A stretch of 39,725 bases of DNA, taken from IMG/VR virus record IMGVR_UViG_638341086_000010; one strand, given 5' to 3'. Numbering within the stretch: position 1 is the stretch's first letter; every line of letters begins with the position of its first letter. Below are positions 30,433 through 38,037 of this stretch, piece by piece. The translations under genes and the position numbers were made by a program. Under the pieces are notes generated by a model that was not told the DNA's origin, ran no database searches, and saw only the letters and a list, made by a program, of their open reading frames with translations. The DNA comes from a virus (Duplodnaviria > Heunggongvirae > Uroviricota > Caudoviricetes).

Positions 30433-30735
30433 TCATTGTGTTCCCATTGATGTTCTTTTATATACCCTCAATACCCGTTTCATCGCGGCACTCTGGCGAC
30501 ACTCCTTAAAAATCAGATTCGTGCTCACCTTTCCTTCCCGTTCTTCTCTGGTAGCGAACCGGTAATACACCGTTCGCCAGACCTTACCATCAACGACCAG
30601 GATTCCTGCCCGCGCCATTTTAGCCGCAGCCTGATTTATGCTGGTTACGGTTGCGCCTGTTACCGCGGCAACGTCCTGTGCACAGAAGCTCTTATGCGTC
30701 CCCAGGTAATGAATAATTGCCTCTTTGCCCGTCAT
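30433..30735 (-). CDS. ren: Ren-like protein (Rex-exclusion escape), 100 aa
   Basis: Translation MTGKEAIIHYLGTHKSFCAQDVAAVTGATVTSINQAAAKMARAG... matches lambda Ren as recalled; 4-nt overlap with P. Confidence 0.85.
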   Translation of the reverse strand: MTGKEAIIHYLGTHKSFCAQDVAAVTGATVTSINQAAAKMARAGILVVDGKVWRTVYYRFATREEREGKVSTNLIFKECRQSAAMKRVLRVYKRTSMGTQ

Positions 30736-31433
30736 ACACTTGCTCCTTTCAGTCCGAACTTAGCTTTAATTTCTGCGATCTTCGCCAGAGCCTGTGCACG
30801 ATTTAGAGGTCTACCGCCCATAACAGGAAGTTGTTTTACTGGTTCAGGTATCGTCTCACCACGGTTAATTCGCGCTGTCATACAGGTCAGTTCATCGGCA
30901 GCCTTGCGCCGTAATTCCGCGTCAGTCAGCGCATTGGCCCGCATGTTCTGGTACAAGTTGGTAACCAACCAGTAATGCGCGTTCGATTTCCACGGATAAG
31001 ACTCTGCATCCGGATACAGGCCACGCTTCCGGCAATACTCGTAAACCATATCAACCAGCTCGCTGACGTTTGGCAGCCCGGCGTTAACAGATGCTTCTTC
31101 CCGGCACCAGGCGACAAACTGCCCGGGTGATGGCAGGAATGGTCGATTCTGCCGACGGGCTACGCGCATTCCAGCGTTAACCTGTTCCATTGTGGTGATC
31201 CCGTTTTCCCGGAAAGCCAGAACCCACTGGCGGCGGATTTCGTTCAGTTCATTCTGGTCACGGTTAGCCAGGCTCGCCGGGAAAGTTGCCAGTAACTGGC
31301 TTAACACACCGTTGATGATCTGCGCTACCTGCTGTACCTGTGGCTTTTCGTCGTACTGTTCCGGCATGTTGTTGGCGATCCGGCGCATCTGCTCACAGTC
31401 AAAGTTAACCATCTGTGCGGCGATGTTTTTCAT
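30732..31433 (-). CDS. P: Replication protein P (DnaB helicase loader), 233 aa
   Basis: 233 aa, the same length as lambda P, N-terminus MKNIAAQMVNFDCEQMRRIANNMPEQYDEKPQVQQVAQ.... Confidence 0.93.
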   Translation of the reverse strand: MKNIAAQMVNFDCEQMRRIANNMPEQYDEKPQVQQVAQIINGVLSQLLATFPASLANRDQNELNEIRRQWVLAFRENGITTMEQVNAGMRVARRQNRPFLPSPGQFVAWCREEASVNAGLPNVSELVDMVYEYCRKRGLYPDAESYPWKSNAHYWLVTNLYQNMRANALTDAELRRKAADELTCMTARINRGETIPEPVKQLPVMGGRPLNRAQALAKIAEIKAKFGLKGASV

Positions 31434-32359
31434 AGCTCCACCCCGTAAATCCAGTCAGTGTTCGTCAGGTCGAGTTTTGGTTTGCCGGCTGTCACGCCAG
31501 CCTGTTGCTTGTTTCGGTTGATTTCGAGCTGGGTCCACTTGTCGCGGAGTTTGGCCGGACTTAGCACGTTACCGGACCAGAAGTTGTCCTGGCATGCCCA
31601 GCGGAACAGCACGCACATGTCGCGGTGGTTACGTCCGTCACGTTCACGCATCAGGCGGATATCGTTAGCCCACCCTGCAAAATTCGGTTTTCTGGCTGAT
31701 GGCGCGATGGTCTTCACCATGTCAAACATCCACTCTGCGGCGGTCAGGTCTTCTGCTGTCCCCCACTTGCTGCCGCTCTGAATTGCAGCATCCGGTTTCA
31801 CCACAGGAAGATCGTTTTCTGGTTGGTCAGAGGATTCGCCAGAATTCTCGGACGAAAAAGGTTTTATATTGTCTTTTGTTAGTTTGTCTTTTGTGTTTAC
31901 CTGATTCGGGTAAACGCCTTTACCTGATTTGGGTAAACTTTTTTTACCTGATTCAGGTAAATTTACCTCTTTCAGGTAAACTTTATTTTTCTTACCTGAT
32001 TCGGGTAATGTTGACCATTCACTGACCACATTATTAATGCCGGTATTCCGCCCGCTCTGAATAAAAATCCCACGCTTTACCAGAACACTTTTTGCAGCAG
32101 AACACTTGTGCGGCAATATCCCGGTTAATTCGGAAAGTTGCTCGTTGCTAACCCAATCCAGTTTTTTATTAAAGCCATATGTTTTGCGCATGACAGCCAG
32201 AAAGACCAGAAGCTGGTGCTGTGTTAATCCGGCCAGCATCACAGCTTCCAGCAACTCATTTGCAATGCGCGTATAACCATCATCGAGATCTGCCACGCGC
32301 GGCTCCTTTTGTGCCGCATCCGGCACTGGAAAATTGAATATCTCAGCAGTGTTTGCCAT
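31430..32359 (-). CDS. O: Replication initiator O, about 309 aa, with lambda-like P-interacting C-terminus; an in-frame upstream ATG at 32449 would give 339 aa
   Basis: From MANTAEIFNF…VADLDDGY the N-terminus parallels lambda O (MTNTAKILNF…VADLDDGY); GGGAGGA RBS before the 32359 ATG. The upstream ATG at 32449 overlaps the YdaT-like stop as ATGA. Iterons lie inside the gene. Confidence 0.85.
   Translation of the reverse strand: MANTAEIFNFPVPDAAQKEPRVADLDDGYTRIANELLEAVMLAGLTQHQLLVFLAVMRKTYGFNKKLDWVSNEQLSELTGILPHKCSAAKSVLVKRGIFIQSGRNTGINNVVSEWSTLPESGKKNKVYLKEVNLPESGKKSLPKSGKGVYPNQVNTKDKLTKDNIKPFSSENSGESSDQPENDLPVVKPDAAIQSGSKWGTAEDLTAAEWMFDMVKTIAPSARKPNFAGWANDIRLMRERDGRNHRDMCVLFRWACQDNFWSGNVLSPAKLRDKWTQLEINRNKQQAGVTAGKPKLDLTNTDWIYGVEL
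31897..32010. repeat. ori: Replication origin iterons: five roughly 19-bp copies of TTACCTGATTCGGGTAAAC-like repeats with an AT-rich patch, inside the O gene
   Basis: Five directly repeated units (TTACCTGATTCGGGTAAAC, TTACCTGATTTGGGTAAAC, TTACCTGATTCAGGTAAAT, TTACCTCTTTCAGGTAAAC, TTACCTGATTCGGGTAATG), each internally dyad-symmetric (TTACC…GGTAA); position within O mirrors lambda ori. Confidence 0.8.
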
Positions 32360-32445
32360 AATTCCTCCCGCAATGAGTGTGTTACGATTTGCACCTGAAA
32401 GTCGGCTCTGTTCCAGCAGACCGGCTTTCGCCATTTCTGAACCTG

Positions 32446-32985
32446 TCATATCGCCCCCAGCATGGTAGTAACCATCGCCATCAATGGACCAGCCAGATCT
32501 GGGTCCACACGAAACATCGACACAATACCTTCACTAATTTCCTTCAGTTTCTGGTGGCGTGGTGCGTTGAGAATGACAGCCTGTTTTGCCTCACTGAGTT
32601 CCTTTTCCATTTCAGCCAACCTAGCCATGAAGCTATCCTGCTCAACCAGGTAACCGCGATATTCCAGCGGTAGTACCGCCAGAATTGCCGGGGTCAGTTC
32701 ACGCACGTTATTTCGGTATTTTTCAGAATCGAATTTGTTATCGAGGAAGCGGAACAGCTTCTGGCGTGCACGGCTGACATCATCAGGGAAATCGATGGTG
32801 CCGCCGCCCTGCTCCCGATACTCATTCACAATGAGTGTGGCAACGACATCCTGATTATCTACAGCCGACCAGGCGCGGACGGCATCACGGATTTTTTCGT
32901 GGCCTGGCACCTGTTTTGTTTGAGAACGATTTATCACCGCAGTCGGGCTAAATCCGCTAGTCTGTTGGTATGTAAGTGGTTGCAT
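32446..32985 (-). CDS. YdaT-like (Rac prophage CII-position) regulatory protein, 179 aa
   Basis: Sits in the cII position between the cro-like gene and O; motifs (…EYREQGGG… …LTPAILAVLPLEYR…) resemble Rac YdaT as recalled; AAGGAG RBS. Confidence 0.7.
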   Translation of the reverse strand: MQPLTYQQTSGFSPTAVINRSQTKQVPGHEKIRDAVRAWSAVDNQDVVATLIVNEYREQGGGTIDFPDDVSRARQKLFRFLDNKFDSEKYRNNVRELTPAILAVLPLEYRGYLVEQDSFMARLAEMEKELSEAKQAVILNAPRHQKLKEISEGIVSMFRVDPDLAGPLMAMVTTMLGAI

Positions 32986-33053
32986 AATTGCTCCTTTAGT
33001 TTGAATTGACTGTTAAGTTGATTGCTTATTGTTAAAGAGCGTGAAATGGAAAT

Positions 33054-33284
33054 TTAAGCTGCGTTCTTTTCGGTGTGTGGAAACAACTTCGGAAGATCCG
33101 GGCGAATCTGGTATGCCTTCACTACTCCACCAGTAGCCGTAACAATGCTGCCGACATGTTCAGGGGATACCTTTGCTTTGTTGTGAAGCCACTTATAGAC
33201 GGCCTGCTGTGAAACTTCGCAAGCAGCGCCCAGTTTCTTTTGTGAACCAACGATATTGATCGCTGTTTTGATAGCTGGGTTCAT
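33054..33284 (-). CDS. Cro/YdaS-like HTH repressor, 76 aa
   Basis: Small HTH protein (…KKLGAACEVSQQAVYKWL…) divergent from cI across an operator region; GGAGG RBS. Confidence 0.8.
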   Translation of the reverse strand: MNPAIKTAINIVGSQKKLGAACEVSQQAVYKWLHNKAKVSPEHVGSIVTATGGVVKAYQIRPDLPKLFPHTEKNAA

Positions 33285-33318
33285 AACAACCTCCGTGGTT
33301 AATTTGAATCAAGATTAA

Positions 33319-33379
33319 AACCATGGTTGTTTTTAGTCAACAACCATTTTCGTTTGATGAAATAAAACCTTGGTTGTAC
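33319..33379. promoter_or_regulatory. Right operator region (OR-like): repeated AACCATGGTTG / CAACCAT / AACCTTGGTTG dyad motifs between the divergent cro-like and cI genes
   Basis: Three related palindromic motifs within the 104-bp divergent intergenic region. Individual promoter hexamers were not assigned. Confidence 0.55.
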
Positions 33380-33388
33380 ATTTGGACT

Positions 33389-34078
33389 ATGAAAACAACA
33401 CTCTCAGAAAGACTTAAAGAAGCCAGATTAGCGCGAGGCCTTACACAAAAGGCGCTTGGGGATTTGGTCGGGGTTAGCCAGGCTGCTATTCAGAAAATCG
33501 AAACAGGGAAAGCTAATCAAACAACTAAAATCGTGGAGATCGCGAACGCTTTGGGTGTGCGCGCAGAATGGTTATCTTCTGGCGTTGGAAATATGTCAGA
33601 CAGTACAGTGCAACCAATACAATCAACTGTCAGCCATTCCAAATACTTCAAGATTGACGTTCTTGATATAGAAGTCAGTGCTGGGCCGGGAGTCATCAAC
33701 CGTGAGTTTGTAGAAGTTCTACGCTCGGTTGAGTACTCGTTTGACGATGCTCGTCACATGTTCGATGGTAGGAAGGCGGAAAATATCCGCATCATTAACG
33801 TGCGTGGTGACAGCATGTCAGGAACGATCGAACCAGGTGATCTGCTGTTCGTTGATATCACAGTTAAATCTTTCGACGGTGATGGTATCTATGCGTTTCT
33901 GTACGACGACACAGCCCATGTAAAGCGCCTGCAAATGATGAAGGATAAGCTGCTGGTCATCTCTGATAACAAAAGCTACTCACCGTGGGACCCGATCGAG
34001 AAAGACGAGATGAACCGGGTGTTCATCTTCGGTAAGGTTATTGGGAGCATGCCGCAGACATATAGGAAGCATGGGTAG
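33389..34078 (+). CDS. cI: CI-type prophage repressor (N-terminal HTH plus C-terminal S24 LexA-like autopeptidase), about 229 aa
   Basis: HTH region (…LTQKALGDLVGVSQAAIQKIETG…) and S24 peptidase motifs (…GDSMSGTIEPGDLLFVD… …KRL…); ATG at 33389 chosen because the ORF-track start at 33323 lies inside the operator region. Confidence 0.85.
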   Translation: MKTTLSERLKEARLARGLTQKALGDLVGVSQAAIQKIETGKANQTTKIVEIANALGVRAEWLSSGVGNMSDSTVQPIQSTVSHSKYFKIDVLDIEVSAGPGVINREFVEVLRSVEYSFDDARHMFDGRKAENIRIINVRGDSMSGTIEPGDLLFVDITVKSFDGDGIYAFLYDDTAHVKRLQMMKDKLLVISDNKSYSPWDPIEKDEMNRVFIFGKVIGSMPQTYRKHG

Positions 34079-34199
34079 TACCAATTAAAAATTATCAACT
34101 GGGCATTGTGCTCATTCAGTAAAGAACTAATTCCTATCTTTGCTCTAGGTAGTAATATTAAGCCACCGCAATAATATCTTTACCTAACGGCGTAAGAAT

Positions 34200-34229
34200 C
34201 CCGGTCACCGTGCCGGGTTTTCTTTTGCC
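34200..34229 (+). terminator. Rho-independent terminator downstream of cI
   Basis: CCCGG-TCACCGTG-CCGGG followed by TTTTCTTTT on the plus strand. Confidence 0.6.
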
Positions 34230-34361
34230 CTCCCCTCATCACACACACCGTTAAAAAAACCACCATAACCTCGCTTCAGTTATCGCTATGCGATTCAAGT
34301 CACAAAATAAATCCATCCTAAATACAACCAGTTATATCTAAAGCAACCAATAAAACAACTT

Positions 34362-34396
34362 TTGTTGTTGACGATAAAACAACTATAGTTTTAAAT
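34362..34396 (+). promoter_or_regulatory. Candidate pL promoter with flanking operator-like dyad (AACAAC-N4-GTTGTT)
   Basis: TTGACG followed 17 nt later by TTAAAT; adjacent inverted repeat AACAACTTTTGTTGTT. Assignment is from sequence pattern and position only. Confidence 0.35.
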
Positions 34397-34589
34397 AAGT
34401 TCATCGCAACAACACAACGATACGGCAACTACCTGATTCACCGTTGCGATGACCGCTTAGATCCGCAGTTTGAATTTCAGCAGGCTTCGGGGAGTGCGAG
34501 GGGTGAAACGGACGCGTGAACGTCGGTGTGACCAGCTGAAATTAACTCAACATTTCATACCTTAGTCGCTTCAACGAGGCGGCTTAGTT

Positions 34590-34880
34590 ATGACAACCAG
34601 CGGCCATCCACCGCCTGAATACGCGCAGAAGTCTCTATATGTTCAGCAGCCCAGCTTACGGGCAGGAGTTTTTATGGTTCATCAACATTATGGAACGCAG
34701 ACCGTTAATCGAGGTGCGGTCATGCCAGGAATGCTGGTCAAACACAAAGATGGTACCTGGACTGCATCAGCTAATTTACGCGGACGGCTTTATCTGCATC
34801 GCGGCATCGAGCGCACTTATACCCGTGATTTGCTCGTGGAAGTTTTTCTCGACGGACGCGGTAACGGCCTGAATCACTAA
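34590..34880 (+). CDS. Hypothetical first protein of the early-left operon (96 aa as called; an internal start would give about 68 aa); possibly Kil/KilR-like
   Basis: First ORF after the pL leader, in the position where lambda has kil/cIII and Rac has kilR. Not arginine-rich, so not an N-type antiterminator. Function is a guess. Confidence 0.45.
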
Positions 34881-34955
34881 TCCCCTTTCCTGTTTTCCTA
34901 ATCAGCCTGGCATTTCGCGGGCGATATTTTCACAGCCATTTTCAGGAGGTCAGCC

Positions 34956-35252
34956 ATGAACGCTTATTACATTCAGGATCGTCTTGAGGCTCAGAGCTGG
35001 GCGCGTCACTACCAGCAGATCGCCCGTGAAGAGAAAGAGGCAGAACTGGCAGACGACATGGAAAAAGGCCTGCCCCAGCACCTGTTTGAATCGCTATGCA
35101 TCGATCATTTGCAACGCCACGGGGCCAGCAAAAAAGCCATTACCCGTGCGTTTGATGACGATGTTGAGTTTCAGGAGCGCATGGCAGAACACATCCAGTA
35201 CATGGTTGAAACCATTGCTCACCACCAGGTTGATATTGATTCAGAGGTATAA
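34956..35252 (+). CDS. gam: Gam (RecBCD inhibitor), short GamS form, 98 aa
   Basis: Translation [48 protein letters not shown]... matches lambda GamS as recalled; AGGAGG RBS. Confidence 0.93.
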
Positions 35253-35257
35253 AACGG

Positions 35258-36043
35258 ATGAGTACAGCACTCGCAACGCTGGCAGGGAAGCTGGCTGAAC
35301 GTGTCGGCATGGATTCTGTCGACCCACAGGAACTGATCACCACTCTTCGCCAGACGGCATTTAAAGGTGATGCCAGCGATGCGCAGTTCATCGCATTGTT
35401 GATCGTCGCCAACCAGTACGGCCTTAATCCGTGGACGAAAGAAATTTACGCCTTCCCTGATAAGCAGAACGGCATCGTTCCGGTGGTGGGCGTTGATGGC
35501 TGGTCCCGCATCATCAATGAAAACCAGCAGTTTGATGGCATGGACTTTGAGCAGGACAATGAATCCTGTACATGCCGGATTTACCGCAAGGACCGTAATC
35601 ATCCGATCTGCGTTACCGAATGGATGGATGAATGCCGCCGCGAACCATTCAAAACTCGCGAAGGCAGAGAAATCACGGGGCCGTGGCAGTCGCATCCCAA
35701 ACGGATGTTACGGCATAAAGCCATGATTCAGTGTGCCCGTCTGGCCTTCGGATTTGCTGGTATCTATGACAAGGATGAAGCCGAGCGCATTGTCGAAAAT
35801 ACTGCATACACTGCAGAACGTCAGCCAGAACGCGACATCACTCCGGTTAACGATGAAACCATGCAGGAGATTAACACTCTGCTGATCGCCCTGGATAAAA
35901 CATGGGATGACGACTTATTGCCGCTCTGTTCCCAGATATTTCGCCGCGACATTCGCGCATCGTCAGAACTGACACAGGCCGAAGCAGTGAAAGCTCTTGG
36001 ATTCCTGAAACAGAAAGCCACTGAGCAGAAGGTGGCAGCATGA
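35258..36043 (+). CDS. bet: Bet (Red-beta single-strand annealing recombinase), 261 aa
   Basis: 261 aa, the same length as lambda Bet, N-terminus [41 protein letters not shown].... Confidence 0.95.
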
Positions 36044-36720
36044 CACCGGACATTATCCTGCAGCGTACCGGGATCGACGTGAGAGCTGTCGAACAGGGGG
36101 ATGATGCATGGCACAAATTACGGCTCGGCGTCATCACCGCTTCAGAAGTTCACAACGTGATAGCAAAGCCCCGCTCAGGAAAAAAGTGGCCTGACATGAA
36201 AATGTCCTACTTCCACACCCTGCTGGCTGAGGTTTGCACCGGTGTGGCTCCGGAAGTTAATGCTAAGGCGCTGGCCTGGGGAAAACAGTACGAGAACGAC
36301 GCCAGAACCCTGTTTGAATTCACTTCCGGCGTGAATGTTACTGAATCCCCGATCATCTATCGCGACGAAAGTATGCGCACCGCCTGCTCTCCCGATGGTT
36401 TATGCAGTGACGGCAACGGCCTTGAACTGAAATGCCCGTTTACCTCCCGGGATTTCATGAAGTTCCGGCTCGGTGGTTTCGAGGCCATAAAATCGGCTTA
36501 CATGGCCCAGGTGCAGTACAGCATGTGGGTGACGCGAAAAGATGCCTGGTACTTTGCCAACTATGACCCGCGTATGAAGCGTGAAGGCCTGCATTATGTC
36601 GTGATTGAGCGGAATGAAAAGTACATGGCGAATTTTGACGAGATGGTGCCGGAGTTCATCGAAAAAATGGACGTGGCACTGGCTGAAATTGGTTTTGTAT
36701 TTGGGGAGCAATGGCGATGA
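36040..36720 (+). CDS. exo: Exo (Red-alpha 5-prime to 3-prime exonuclease), 226 aa
   Basis: 226 aa, the same length as lambda Exo, N-terminus [43 protein letters not shown]...; ATGA overlap with bet. Confidence 0.95.
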
Positions 36721-36878
36721 AGCATCCTCACGATAATATCCGGGTAGGCGCGATCACTTTCATCTACTCCGTTACAAAGCGAGGCTGGGTATTTCCCGGC
36801 CTTTCTGTTATCAGAAATCCACTGAAAGCACAGCGGCTGGCTGAGGCGATAAATAATAAACGGGGGCTGTATGACTGA
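36717..36878 (+). CDS. Small hypothetical protein (53 aa), translationally coupled between exo and the methyltransferase
   Basis: ATG overlaps the exo stop (ATGA) and its stop overlaps the methyltransferase start (ATGACTGA); translation [24 protein letters not shown].... Below the ORF-track threshold, read manually. Confidence 0.45.
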
Positions 36879-37428
36879 TTTCACCGGAAGCAATACTCCT
36901 GCCGAACATCGCGACAGCTGGCGCACACCACCAGAGATTTTTGCTGCGCTTAATGCAGAGTTCGTTTTTCAACTTGATGCTGCCGCCAGCGAAAAAAACC
37001 GACTATGTCGGCTTTTTATCTCACAGGAGCAGAACACATTAACCACTTCATGGCCTGAAGCAATGGGATATGCCTCTGGTTATGTCTGGTTGAATCCACC
37101 ATACAGCAATATTTCCCCTTTTGTGAAAAAGGCAGCCACTGAAAACAAATTCAGTAGTGTGGGATGTGTAATGTTATTGCCTGCTGACACATCTGTCGGA
37201 TGGTTTCATGAAGCGATACAAACCGCCAGTGAGGTCAGATTCATCACGGCAGGACGACTGGCATTTATTAACCCACTCACTGAGAAACCCGTCAGTGGAA
37301 ATAATAAAGGCTCGATGCTCATTATCTGGCACCCATACCCCCGTACACACTGCCACTTTACGACCGTTGATCGTGGAGAGTTGATGGCGTTCGGCTCAAG
37401 GATTCTTGCCCGTCGGGAGGCTGCATGA
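36871..37428 (+). CDS. Phage-type DNA N6-adenine methyltransferase (orphan, Dam-like), 185 aa
   Basis: Catalytic NPPY motif (…YVWLNPPYSNISPF…) and overall similarity to the small phage N6-adenine methyltransferase family; no adjacent restriction endonuclease gene. Confidence 0.8.
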   Translation: MTDFTGSNTPAEHRDSWRTPPEIFAALNAEFVFQLDAAASEKNRLCRLFISQEQNTLTTSWPEAMGYASGYVWLNPPYSNISPFVKKAATENKFSSVGCVMLLPADTSVGWFHEAIQTASEVRFITAGRLAFINPLTEKPVSGNNKGSMLIIWHPYPRTHCHFTTVDRGELMAFGSRILARREAA

Positions 37429-37508
37429 CAACCACGGAATGCATTTTTCTGGCAGCGGGCTTCATATTCTGTGTGCTTATGCTTGCCGATATGGGACTTG
37501 TTCAATGA
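37425..37508 (+). CDS. Small hydrophobic peptide (27 aa), candidate membrane peptide, translationally coupled
   Basis: ATG overlaps the methyltransferase stop (ATGA) and its stop overlaps the next start (ATGA); translation MTTTECIFLAAGFIFCVLMLADMGLVQ is one predicted TM helix. Coding status unverified. Confidence 0.35.
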   Translation: MTTTECIFLAAGFIFCVLMLADMGLVQ

Positions 37509-37720
37509 CACCTCAGCAGGAAAACGCCCTTCGCAGCATTGCCCGTCAGGCTAATTCTGAAATCAAAAAAGCCAGACAGCAGTTTCCGGATAAAAACGTC
37601 GATGACATTTGCCGTAGCGTACTTAAGAAGCACCGCGAAACGGTAACGCTGATGGGATTCACACCGACTCATTTAAGCCTGGCGATCGGCATGTTAAACG
37701 GCGTCTTTAAGGAACGGTGA
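37505..37720 (+). CDS. Hypothetical protein, 71 aa
   Basis: ATG coupled to the upstream small ORF; translation MTPQQENALRSIARQANSEIKKARQQFPDKNVDDICRSVLKKHRETV.... The ORF-track version (37406) runs out of frame through the methyltransferase 3-prime end. Confidence 0.55.
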   Translation: MTPQQENALRSIARQANSEIKKARQQFPDKNVDDICRSVLKKHRETVTLMGFTPTHLSLAIGMLNGVFKER

Positions 37721-37818
37721 ACATGAAAAGCAAAATCATCAGGGAGCTACAGGCTCCTTTTTTATTGTTCGCATTCATCCTCAAGCGTATTAACCAACAA
37801 TTCAGGGATTAATGGAAG

Positions 37819-38037
37819 ATGGCAGACATCATTGATTCAGCATCAGAAATCGAAGAATTACAGCGCAATACAGCAATAAAAATGCGTCGTCAGAACTACC
37901 AGACTGTATCCGCAACTCATTGTTGTGAGTGTGGCGATCCGATAGATGAGCGAAGACGCCTGGCTGTTCAGGGTTGTCGGACTTGTGCAAGTTGCCAGGA
38001 GGAGATCGAACTTAAGAACAAACAATGGGGACTGTGA
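37819..38037 (+). CDS. TraR/DksA-family C4-type zinc-finger protein, 72 aa
   Basis: Four-cysteine motif CxxC…(17)…CxxC (…CCECGDPIDERRRLAVQGCRTCASCQ…) and a size typical of phage TraR-like proteins. Confidence 0.8.
   Translation: MADIIDSASEIEELQRNTAIKMRRQNYQTVSATHCCECGDPIDERRRLAVQGCRTCASCQEEIELKNKQWGL

Follow-up and report, generated by a model that had tools for sequence, protein, structure and literature searches.

We analyzed the immunity region of a lambdoid prophage carried on IMG/VR virus record IMGVR_UViG_638341086_000010 (Caudoviricetes), a 39,725-nucleotide (nt) stretch of DNA that we refer to as the window. Between positions 32446 and 34078 lie a cI repressor gene (229 amino acids (aa), 33389-34078, plus strand), a cro analogue of the YdaS family (76 aa, 33054-33284, minus strand), and a cII analogue of the YdaT family and phi80-CII type (179 aa, 32446-32985, minus strand). 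On the left, they are followed by the replication initiator gene O (309 aa, start ATG at 32359, 31430-32359, minus strand), lambda-like P (30732-31433, minus strand), and lambda-like ren (30433-30735, minus strand); on the right stand kil (68 aa, 34674-34880, plus strand) and the lambda Red genes gam, bet, and exo (34956-36720, plus strand). The window holds a lambdoid prophage of the DLP12 type, integrated at the tRNA site argU and running in the orientation opposite to the usual lambda map; the integrase gene is truncated by the right end of the window. With high confidence, we identify the region as the early regulatory (immunity) region of this prophage, lambda-like in build and probably in working, with other modules in place of those of lambda.

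Genes of the module and its mosaic joints

The 179-aa protein occupies the position between cro and O, so that the gene order reads cI / cro / cII analogue / O. Judged by its sequence and its predicted model, it is a true YdaT-family member of the phi80-CII subgroup, because family membership, identity to phi80 CII, fold matches, and the recognition-helix Arg all agree. Against the Pfam family PF06254 (YdaT_toxin) it scores 103.5 bits (cut-off 21, 8.5e-30) over profile positions 1-90 of 92, and it matches phrog_163, "CII-like transcriptional activator", at 3.9e-67. Its identity is 66% to phi80 CII over 180 columns (E 4e-92), 67% to mEp237 CII, and 52% to the CII proteins of HK225 and HK639. 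The AlphaFold2 model has a predicted local distance difference test score of roughly 77-93 over residues 31-110, and a Foldseek search of the PDB with this model returned significant matches only to the YdaT structures 3C4R and 8BT1 (probability 1.00, template modeling score 0.65-0.67 relative to the target), in agreement with a POU-like helical DNA-binding fold. The Arg of the recognition helix is kept: R79 in QKLFRFLD aligns with the Arg of QKIFRWLD in 8BT1/3C4R and, by manual alignment, corresponds to R57 of Rac YdaT (NIYHRWL), where an H56A/R57A mutant shows no DNA binding (PMC11879457). In CP-933P and Rac, the family members are tetrameric DNA-binding proteins that activate the counterpart of the lambda promoter pRE and are not toxins, and in both prophages YdaS and YdaT are the Cro and CII analogues (PMC8630535, PMC9986795, PMC11879457, PMC5917428).

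The cro analogue scores 62 bits against Pfam YdaS_toxin (cut-off 30, 4.1e-17), belongs to phrog_35, is 30% identical to Rac YdaS, and matches the Cro protein 3BD1 in the PDB. The repressor combines an N-terminal HTH_3 domain with Peptidase_S24 (both Pfam) and contains the predicted self-cleavage features of this class, namely, SAGPG with A98-G99, GDSM with S142, and VKRL with K179. The best solved relatives of its helix-turn-helix (HTH) domain are 434 repressor (E 4.5e-9) and 434 Cro (E 2.7e-7). A longer cI frame opens at 33323 and some deposited records of the module use this start, whereas the Prokaryotic Genome Annotation Pipeline (PGAP) and the annotation of the close relative Perceval use 33389; Perceval has no ATG in the upstream extension. 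The cI transcript from pRM is probably leaderless, starting at the A of the cI ATG. An earlier sequence-only reading of this DNA had described a CI repressor with an S24 domain, a Cro/YdaS-like protein, and a YdaT-like protein in the cII position, and the profile matches to the three open reading frames (ORFs; 33323/33389-34078, plus strand; 33054-33284 and 32446-32985, minus strand) bear out all three descriptions, including relatedness to YdaT.

By blastn, homology to lambda covers 30460-31896 (94%) and 34874-36873 (97.8%), as well as 37425-38014, and between 31896 and 34874 the similarity is limited to a single 23-nt island. From this comparison the mosaic joints are at 31896/31897 and 34873/34874, and the non-lambda block is 31897-34873; the sequence-only reading had placed them at 32446 and 34078, well inside the block. 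The right joint coincides with the stop codon of kil, which is the last gene of the block. The left joint falls within O, exactly at the first of five origin iterons, which are copies of a 19-bp palindromic unit, TTTACCTGATTCGGGTAAA, within the gene (31896-32008; repeat family D1, inverted pairs I1-I8) and differ in sequence from the lambda iterons. Because the left joint is inside O at the first iteron, the N-terminal DNA-binding half of O and the iterons go together with the non-lambda block, and the lambda-type P keeps as its partner a C-terminal part of O that is also of lambda type. It is this C-terminal part that contacts P in lambda.

The general layout proposed from the sequence, in which lambda-like replication and recombination genes lie on both sides of an immunity region unlike that of lambda, is upheld by both blastn and blastp. 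Amino acid identity to lambda is 97% for P (Pfam Phage_lambda_P, 2e-60), 90% for Ren (over 92 residues, with lambda-like DNA from 30460), 97% for Gam, 99.6% for Bet, and 98% for Exo, and the Pfam matches of the neighboring genes are Phage_rep_O (1.1e-33), Phage_lambda_P, Gam, RecT, and YqaJ. O had also been listed among the lambda-like genes, which is correct only from 31896 leftward; its N-terminal DNA-binding half is not lambda-like. We note that on the far side of the Red genes an N6-adenine methyltransferase gene (36871-37428) splits the lambda-like DNA, which ends at 36873 and restarts at 37425.

Operators, promoters, and the immunity-specific cassette

Pattern and 16-mer scans identified the repeated element of the control regions as a 16-bp dyad, AACAAC-N4-GTTGTT, with three sites in the right operator (OR) and two in the left operator (OL). 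The OR control region (33285-33388) holds OR1 at 33316-33331, OR2 at 33339-33354, and OR3 at 33363-33378; the OL control region (34354-34396) holds OL2 at 34354-34369, a perfect AACAAC-TTTT-GTTGTT, and OL1 at 34378-34393. The sites are spaced 23-24 bp from center to center (23 and 24 bp in OR). The pattern AMAACN4GTTKT has four exact matches in 39.7 kb, all inside OR or OL, and five of the seven 16-mers in the window with at least 10 of 12 arm matches lie in the same two regions. The dyads that the sequence-only reading had pointed to do exist (AACCATGGTTG at 33319, inside OR1, and AACCTTGGTTG at 33366), but the AACCATGGTTG 11-mer is not enriched, with 11 matches at up to two mismatches vs 13.5 expected, and AMAACN4GTTKT is the better register. 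Its statement that the operators are unlike lambda OR stands, as the lambda-type 17-bp operator (TATCACCGC type) has no match in OR or OL at up to three mismatches. A possible fourth operator, AACAACCTCCGTGGTT, is present at 33285-33300; with 11 of 12 arm matches it is the second best in the window, and it covers the Shine-Dalgarno sequence of cro at a distance of 31 bp from OR1.

Three promoters were assigned by eye around these sites. The predicted pR is TTGACT-17-TAATCT on the minus strand (-35 at 33340-33335, -10 at 33317-33312), with OR1 between the hexamers and OR2 over the -35 element. The predicted pRM is TTGATG-17-TACATT on the plus strand (-35 at 33354-33359, -10 at 33377-33382), with OR3 between the hexamers, and the predicted pL is TTGACG-17-TTAAAT, also on the plus strand (-35 at 34368-34373, -10 at 34391-34396). 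The pR and pL regions are inverted near-copies of one another (repeat pairs I1 and I2).

Comparison with Perceval delimits the immunity determinant. The Perceval CI is identical to that of the window from about residue 85 to the end and differs in its HTH domain, roughly half of the Cro residues differ, and the dyads are of an AATAGC-N4-GCTATT type in the same places in OR and OL. The operator assignment is thus supported, since the dyads co-vary with the CI HTH domain and with Cro. The same immunity type is found in PhiR70_1, 4A7, and others; in Perceval and PhiR70_1, the OL patch is replaced by the other dyads and, beginning at the transcription start, both sequences nearly match the window. 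Perceval and the window have in common the cII analogue (98%), O, and, starting at its first bases, the pL transcript. Because operators and HTH domains are swapped while cII, O, and the pL leader stay, the sequence comparison limits the immunity-specific cassette to approximately 32987-33521 plus the OL patch. By the same comparison, the YdaT-like gene is common to different immunity types and is outside the cassette. The earlier proposal that the module defines its own immunity specificity thus holds in that the operators differ from those of lambda, but the YdaT-like gene is no part of that specificity. Salmonella phage S149 and phage Fraca were considered as diverged relatives for operator and boxA conservation and were rejected, as both have Perceval-type operators; HK022 CI was likewise rejected as a relative, being only 41% identical, with no window-type operators in HK022.

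The slot between the cI stop and pL (34079-34340), which corresponds to the position of rexAB in lambda, is empty in the window. In close relatives, this slot holds GevT/GevA (PhiR47_2), HipA/HipD (PhiR5_1), or two ORFs (Perceval); a literature search on GevT/GevA, for the source of the PhiR phages, returned unrelated papers only. A terminator scan placed an intrinsic terminator downstream of cI at 34200-34226 (plus strand), with a 6-pair stem of which 5 pairs are GC, followed by TTTTCTTTTG.

Start of O and the cII-O spacer

The stop codon of the YdaT-like gene (TGA, 32448-32446) overlaps the first ATG (32449-32447) of the longest O frame (31430-32449, minus strand, 339 aa) as ATGA (GCGATATGACAGG). 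The sequence-only reading had recorded this overlap correctly and considered both possible O starts plausible; comparative evidence favors the downstream ATG at 32359. In blastp, residue 31 of the long ORF, which is the Met at 32359, aligns with residue 1 of lambda O, and phrog_277 profile positions 1-317 of 318 cover residues 1-308 of the short form. The sequence GGGAGGA is found 3 nt upstream of ATG 32359. In eight of ten related phages (lambda, phi80, mEp237, PHB10, SPN3UB, SEN34, ST11-VIM1phi8.2, and Klebsiella phage 6 (Kp6)), a stop codon closes the O frame 6-28 codons before the conserved ATG, and the interval contains no other ATG. SEN34 and ST11-VIM1phi8.2 carry other cII genes, and the part of their sequence that resembles the window begins 9 nt before ATG 32359. 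O therefore probably starts at 32359, with the 339-aa annotation over-extended by 30 codons, and the ATGA overlap is set aside because a pO-like promoter and a predicted OOP-type RNA occupy the 86-nt spacer between cII and O.

The pO-like promoter, TTGAAT-17-CATAAT with a TG element (32334-32362, plus strand), was found by promoter scan and is antisense to the O start; the CAT of its -10 hexamer is the complement of the O ATG. The O start of lambda presumably has a like arrangement, with TTGAGT-17-CATAAT as lambda pO. The predicted antisense RNA is approximately 70 nt long (32369-32440, plus strand) and contains a terminator hairpin at 32397-32429 followed by GCCAUUUCUG, with a fold z-score of -2.3. 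Across 10 phages, 98.6% of the cells of the 14-pair hairpin are paired and five pairs show compensatory double changes, a score that none of 500 shuffles reached. The G.U pairs are valid on the antisense strand only, and this strand is the more stable one in all 10 phages. Where the window and Perceval spacers differ, the changes fall in the hairpin loop and bulge and are mostly nonsynonymous for the long O frame. The phi80 record annotates an "M3 RNA, homolog of lambda oop RNA" in the corresponding spacer. The best reading of the spacer is that it encodes an OOP-type antisense RNA, as predicted from its conservation. An Rfam search of the whole window and of the region gave matches related to insertion sequences (IS) only, and none within the module.

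Proposed circuit, rival readings, and known systems

From the gene content, the protein families, the joints, the operator repeats that co-vary with the HTH domains, the covarying hairpin, and the prevalence described below, we infer binding, promoter use, RNA synthesis, and induction along lambda-like lines. CI would act as a two-domain, LexA-like, self-cleaving repressor that sits on the 16-bp operators, closes pR and pL, and controls its own pRM; RecA-stimulated self-cleavage at Ala98-Gly99 would then lead to prophage induction. The YdaS-family Cro would be the lytic counter-repressor on the same operators. The cII analogue would be a POU-like HTH activator, probably a tetramer, that turns on a leftward establishment promoter between cro and cII. 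A small antisense RNA would be made from the pO-like promoter over the O start codon and end at the conserved hairpin in the spacer, and the non-lambda N-terminal domain of O would bind the five matching iterons in its own gene while its lambda-type C-terminal part pairs with P.

Several observations weigh against this picture. The canonical YdaT box (TTGATT or ATGATT-N6-AATCAA) is absent at the cro-cII junction, where the best candidate, at 33018-33035, has three mismatches, and it is also absent in the six phi80-type relatives that were scanned (phi80, mEp237, KO-TP1, CobraSix, PHB10, and ST846). The predicted pR (with its -10 TAATCT), pL, and pRM all fall under the consensus threshold of the promoter scan. 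The hairpin of the putative OOP-type RNA is followed by GCC and then by a short interrupted U tract, which makes its termination efficiency uncertain. The 339-aa form of O is the one annotated by PGAP and in several phage records. A literature search found no experimental paper on exactly this immunity module. Finally, there is no N gene between pL and kil (leader 34403-34673), which leaves delayed-early transcription unexplained.

The missing N gene is of some interest when taken with the 12-mer GCTCTTTAACAA at 33029-33040 (minus strand), 14 nt past the cro stop and thus in the position of lambda nutR, which is the sole exact copy in the window and which we take to be the rrn-type boxA consensus. 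No boxB-like hairpin was seen after it. Because N is absent between pL and kil and this 12-mer stands at the nutR position, boxA and the host Nus factors alone might give N-independent, rrn-like antitermination; separately, the AACAAC-N4-GTTGTT operators might represent an uncharacterized immunity group. We regard this combined proposal as unlikely. Two other candidates in the pL leader were tried and rejected. An HK022-like put RNA was dropped because the leader folds no better than its shuffles (z -0.04) and has no second copy in the window; HK022 is not among the 25 phage records that match 34230-34680. An arginine-rich 31-aa ORF with a TTG start (34470-34565, ...RGVKRTRERR...), which resembles an N-type motif, was considered as a mini-N, and it has no visible Shine-Dalgarno sequence, shows mixed substitutions, and loses its stop codon in Perceval.

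The kil gene downstream encodes a KilR-like FtsZ inhibitor that matches phrog_294 at 1.3e-37 and NCBIfam PRK11354 at 4.4e-17, the latter under its cut-off, and is 36% identical to Rac KilR. Upstream of it, an element of approximately 60-80 nt (34553-34634) with a hairpin UAGUCGC...GCGGCUUAG is 77-94% shared with HK225, phi80, Enterobacter phages, and KO-TP1. The corresponding stretches are unannotated in those phages, and the one in phi80 is close to the tL1A terminator. Rac has a small RNA, KilS, upstream of kilR.

The label "Rac-type" given by the sequence-only reading implies a racR-ydaS-ydaT module that recombined between lambda O and gam and whose gene boundaries are the joints. Cro, the cII analogue, and Kil do belong to the Pfam/NCBIfam families of Rac YdaS, YdaT, and KilR, at 30-36% identity. 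Nonetheless, Rac 1414000-1425000 gives no blastn match at E 1e-3, the CI with its S24 domain has no blastp similarity to RacR, among named proteins the cII analogue is closest to phi80 CII (66% over the full length), and the joints are inside O and at the end of kil; such an origin is very unlikely, and the label is better dropped. Somewhat related is the question of whether the ATGA overlap couples the translation of a real 339-aa O to that of the YdaT-like gene, for which one could cite the open frame, an upstream GGGGG that could act as a Shine-Dalgarno sequence, the existing annotations, and an in-frame ATG kept 30 codons upstream in KO-TP1. We consider this quite unlikely: by eye the KO-TP1 extension has no obvious amino acid resemblance to that of the window, the extension is closed or lacks an ATG in the eight phages named above, the family profile begins at the downstream Met behind a strong GGGAGGA, and the pattern of change in the spacer is that of an RNA hairpin on the opposite strand.

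It is scarcely credible that the 76-aa and 179-aa proteins form a YdaS/YdaT toxin-antitoxin pair instead of acting as phage regulators, even though the Pfam names YdaS_toxin and YdaT_toxin and the RefSeq label "toxin YdaT domain-containing protein" invite that view. The published family members are Cro and CII analogues and no toxin-antitoxin pair (PMC5917428, PMC8630535, PMC9986795, PMC11879457), the synteny of cI, cro, the 179-aa gene, and O is that of phi80, whose gene in this place is cII, and the fold of the 179-aa protein is that of a DNA-binding HTH. Decay is the remaining alternative, in which the module would be the inert remnant of a prophage with no regulation left. The window prophage carries an IS3-family insertion beside ybcM, and the DLP12 prophage of K-12 is defective. 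The module nevertheless keeps all of its ORFs intact, its CI retains the catalytic residues, and PhiR34_1, whose record describes a phage grown on K-12, has a module with 99.8% identity to it. About 1500 genomes also carry the cassette at 95% identity or higher. Taken together, these points make decay highly improbable. We retain the reading of a lambda-like early regulatory region built from other modules.

Such a region is common. The immunity cassette (33040-33530) was found in 1509 of 5426 complete E. coli genomes (∼28%), nearly always at 95% identity or more. Up to four copies occur in single complete E. coli genomes, an indication that prophages with identical immunity share a host. Five deposited phages (PhiR34_1, IdasGreatGrand, PhiR47_2, PhiR5_1, and PhiR26_1) match the 2.5-kb region at 96-99.8% identity, and their records label the genes cI / Cro / cII / O. 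At 97-99.9% identity, the module is present in PhiR34_1, PhiR5_1, Turner, IdasGreatGrand, and RefSeq DLP12-type prophages, the RefSeq labels being S24 family peptidase / transcriptional regulator / toxin YdaT domain-containing protein / replication protein. According to their records, PhiR34_1 and others are phages that were grown on E. coli K-12 or C. By sequence, every part of the module belongs to a described family, and the whole is a lambdoid mosaic of the standard kind, with database entries already in place. Known parts make up this mosaic, which sequenced phages and more than a quarter of complete E. coli genomes share; the module is therefore well described and not new.

As a discovery, the result is accordingly small: the module stands in public records under like labels, and YdaS and YdaT as stand-ins for Cro and CII are published. 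Its use is in what it delimits and corrects. For a prophage type in ∼28% of complete E. coli genomes, the immunity determinant is narrowed to the CI HTH domain, Cro, and the 16-bp operators. Automatic annotation appears to over-extend O by 30 codons, over-extends cI in some records, misses the predicted OOP-type RNA, and mislabels a CII-type activator as a "toxin". A description as a phi80-type cII joined to its own CI/Cro cassette would serve better than "Rac-type". One loose end of some interest is that N is missing and that an exact copy of the putative rrn-type boxA stands just past cro.

Farther to the left of ren, the gene order is emrE, ybcK, ybcL, ybcM, nin-region genes, quuD, lysis genes, and head genes. 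The IS3-family insertion that adjoins ybcM (25391-26370) contains an ALIL frameshift pseudoknot (25391-25507) and a transposase ORF (25433-26323); the near-identical prophage of strain F8704-2 has no IS3 at this spot and instead has an IS3 in a porin gene. Adjoining the right end of the element, 33 nt past the ybcM stop, is a perfect CP-933P-type YdaT box, TTGATTTCCCAAAATCAA, at 26379-26396. This is the sole zero-mismatch YdaT box in the window and is approximately 6.6 kb from the YdaT-like gene.

Among known systems, the deposited relatives of the module differ from the window in that some carry cargo between cI and pL, and their records annotate the long O and sometimes the long cI. Phage 434 provides the best solved relatives of the CI N-terminal domain, and the operators share a 434-like ACAA...TTGT outline. 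The arm of the window operator is AACAAC with a 4-bp spacer, and only Gln28 of what we take to be the 434 recognition helix is kept in the window CI (Gln29 to Ala, Gln33 to Lys), so that this is a resemblance and not 434 immunity. Rac and CP-933P have a YdaS-family Cro and a YdaT-family CII analogue in the corresponding positions, with a matching fold (CP-933P YdaT, 8BT1) and the conserved recognition-helix Arg (R79 of the window, in LFRFL). Identity to Rac is only 30% for Cro, 35% (over 96 aa) for the cII analogue, and 36% for Kil, with no similarity at the DNA level; the window repressor is an S24 CI and not RacR (158 aa, no S24) or PaaR2, and the YdaT-like protein of the window is ∼40 aa longer, with extra C-terminal helices and no YdaT box at the cro-cII junction.

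With lambda, the window shares the gene order, three OR sites ∼23-24 bp apart with OR1 between the pR -35 and -10 elements and OR3 inside pRM, a probably leaderless cI, a pO promoter over the O start, and P, Ren, Gam, Bet, Exo, and the C-terminal part of O at 90-99.6% identity. In contrast, CI is only 23% identical to that of lambda, Cro (no significant match) and CII are from unrelated families, the operators and iterons differ, rexAB, N, and cIII are missing, and kil is KilR-like. In phi80, CI is 24% identical and the window Cro has no detectable match to gp30; its operators are 19-bp sites of another sequence, it has an N gene and nut sites, and its gp14 is only 48% identical to the window P, which is of lambda type (97%). 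On the other hand, phi80 and the window both have an S24 repressor, an O-like protein (gp15, 42% identical) with iterons inside its gene, a cII-O spacer of equal length (∼85 nt) with an oop homologue, and cII proteins that are 66% identical over 179-180 aa.

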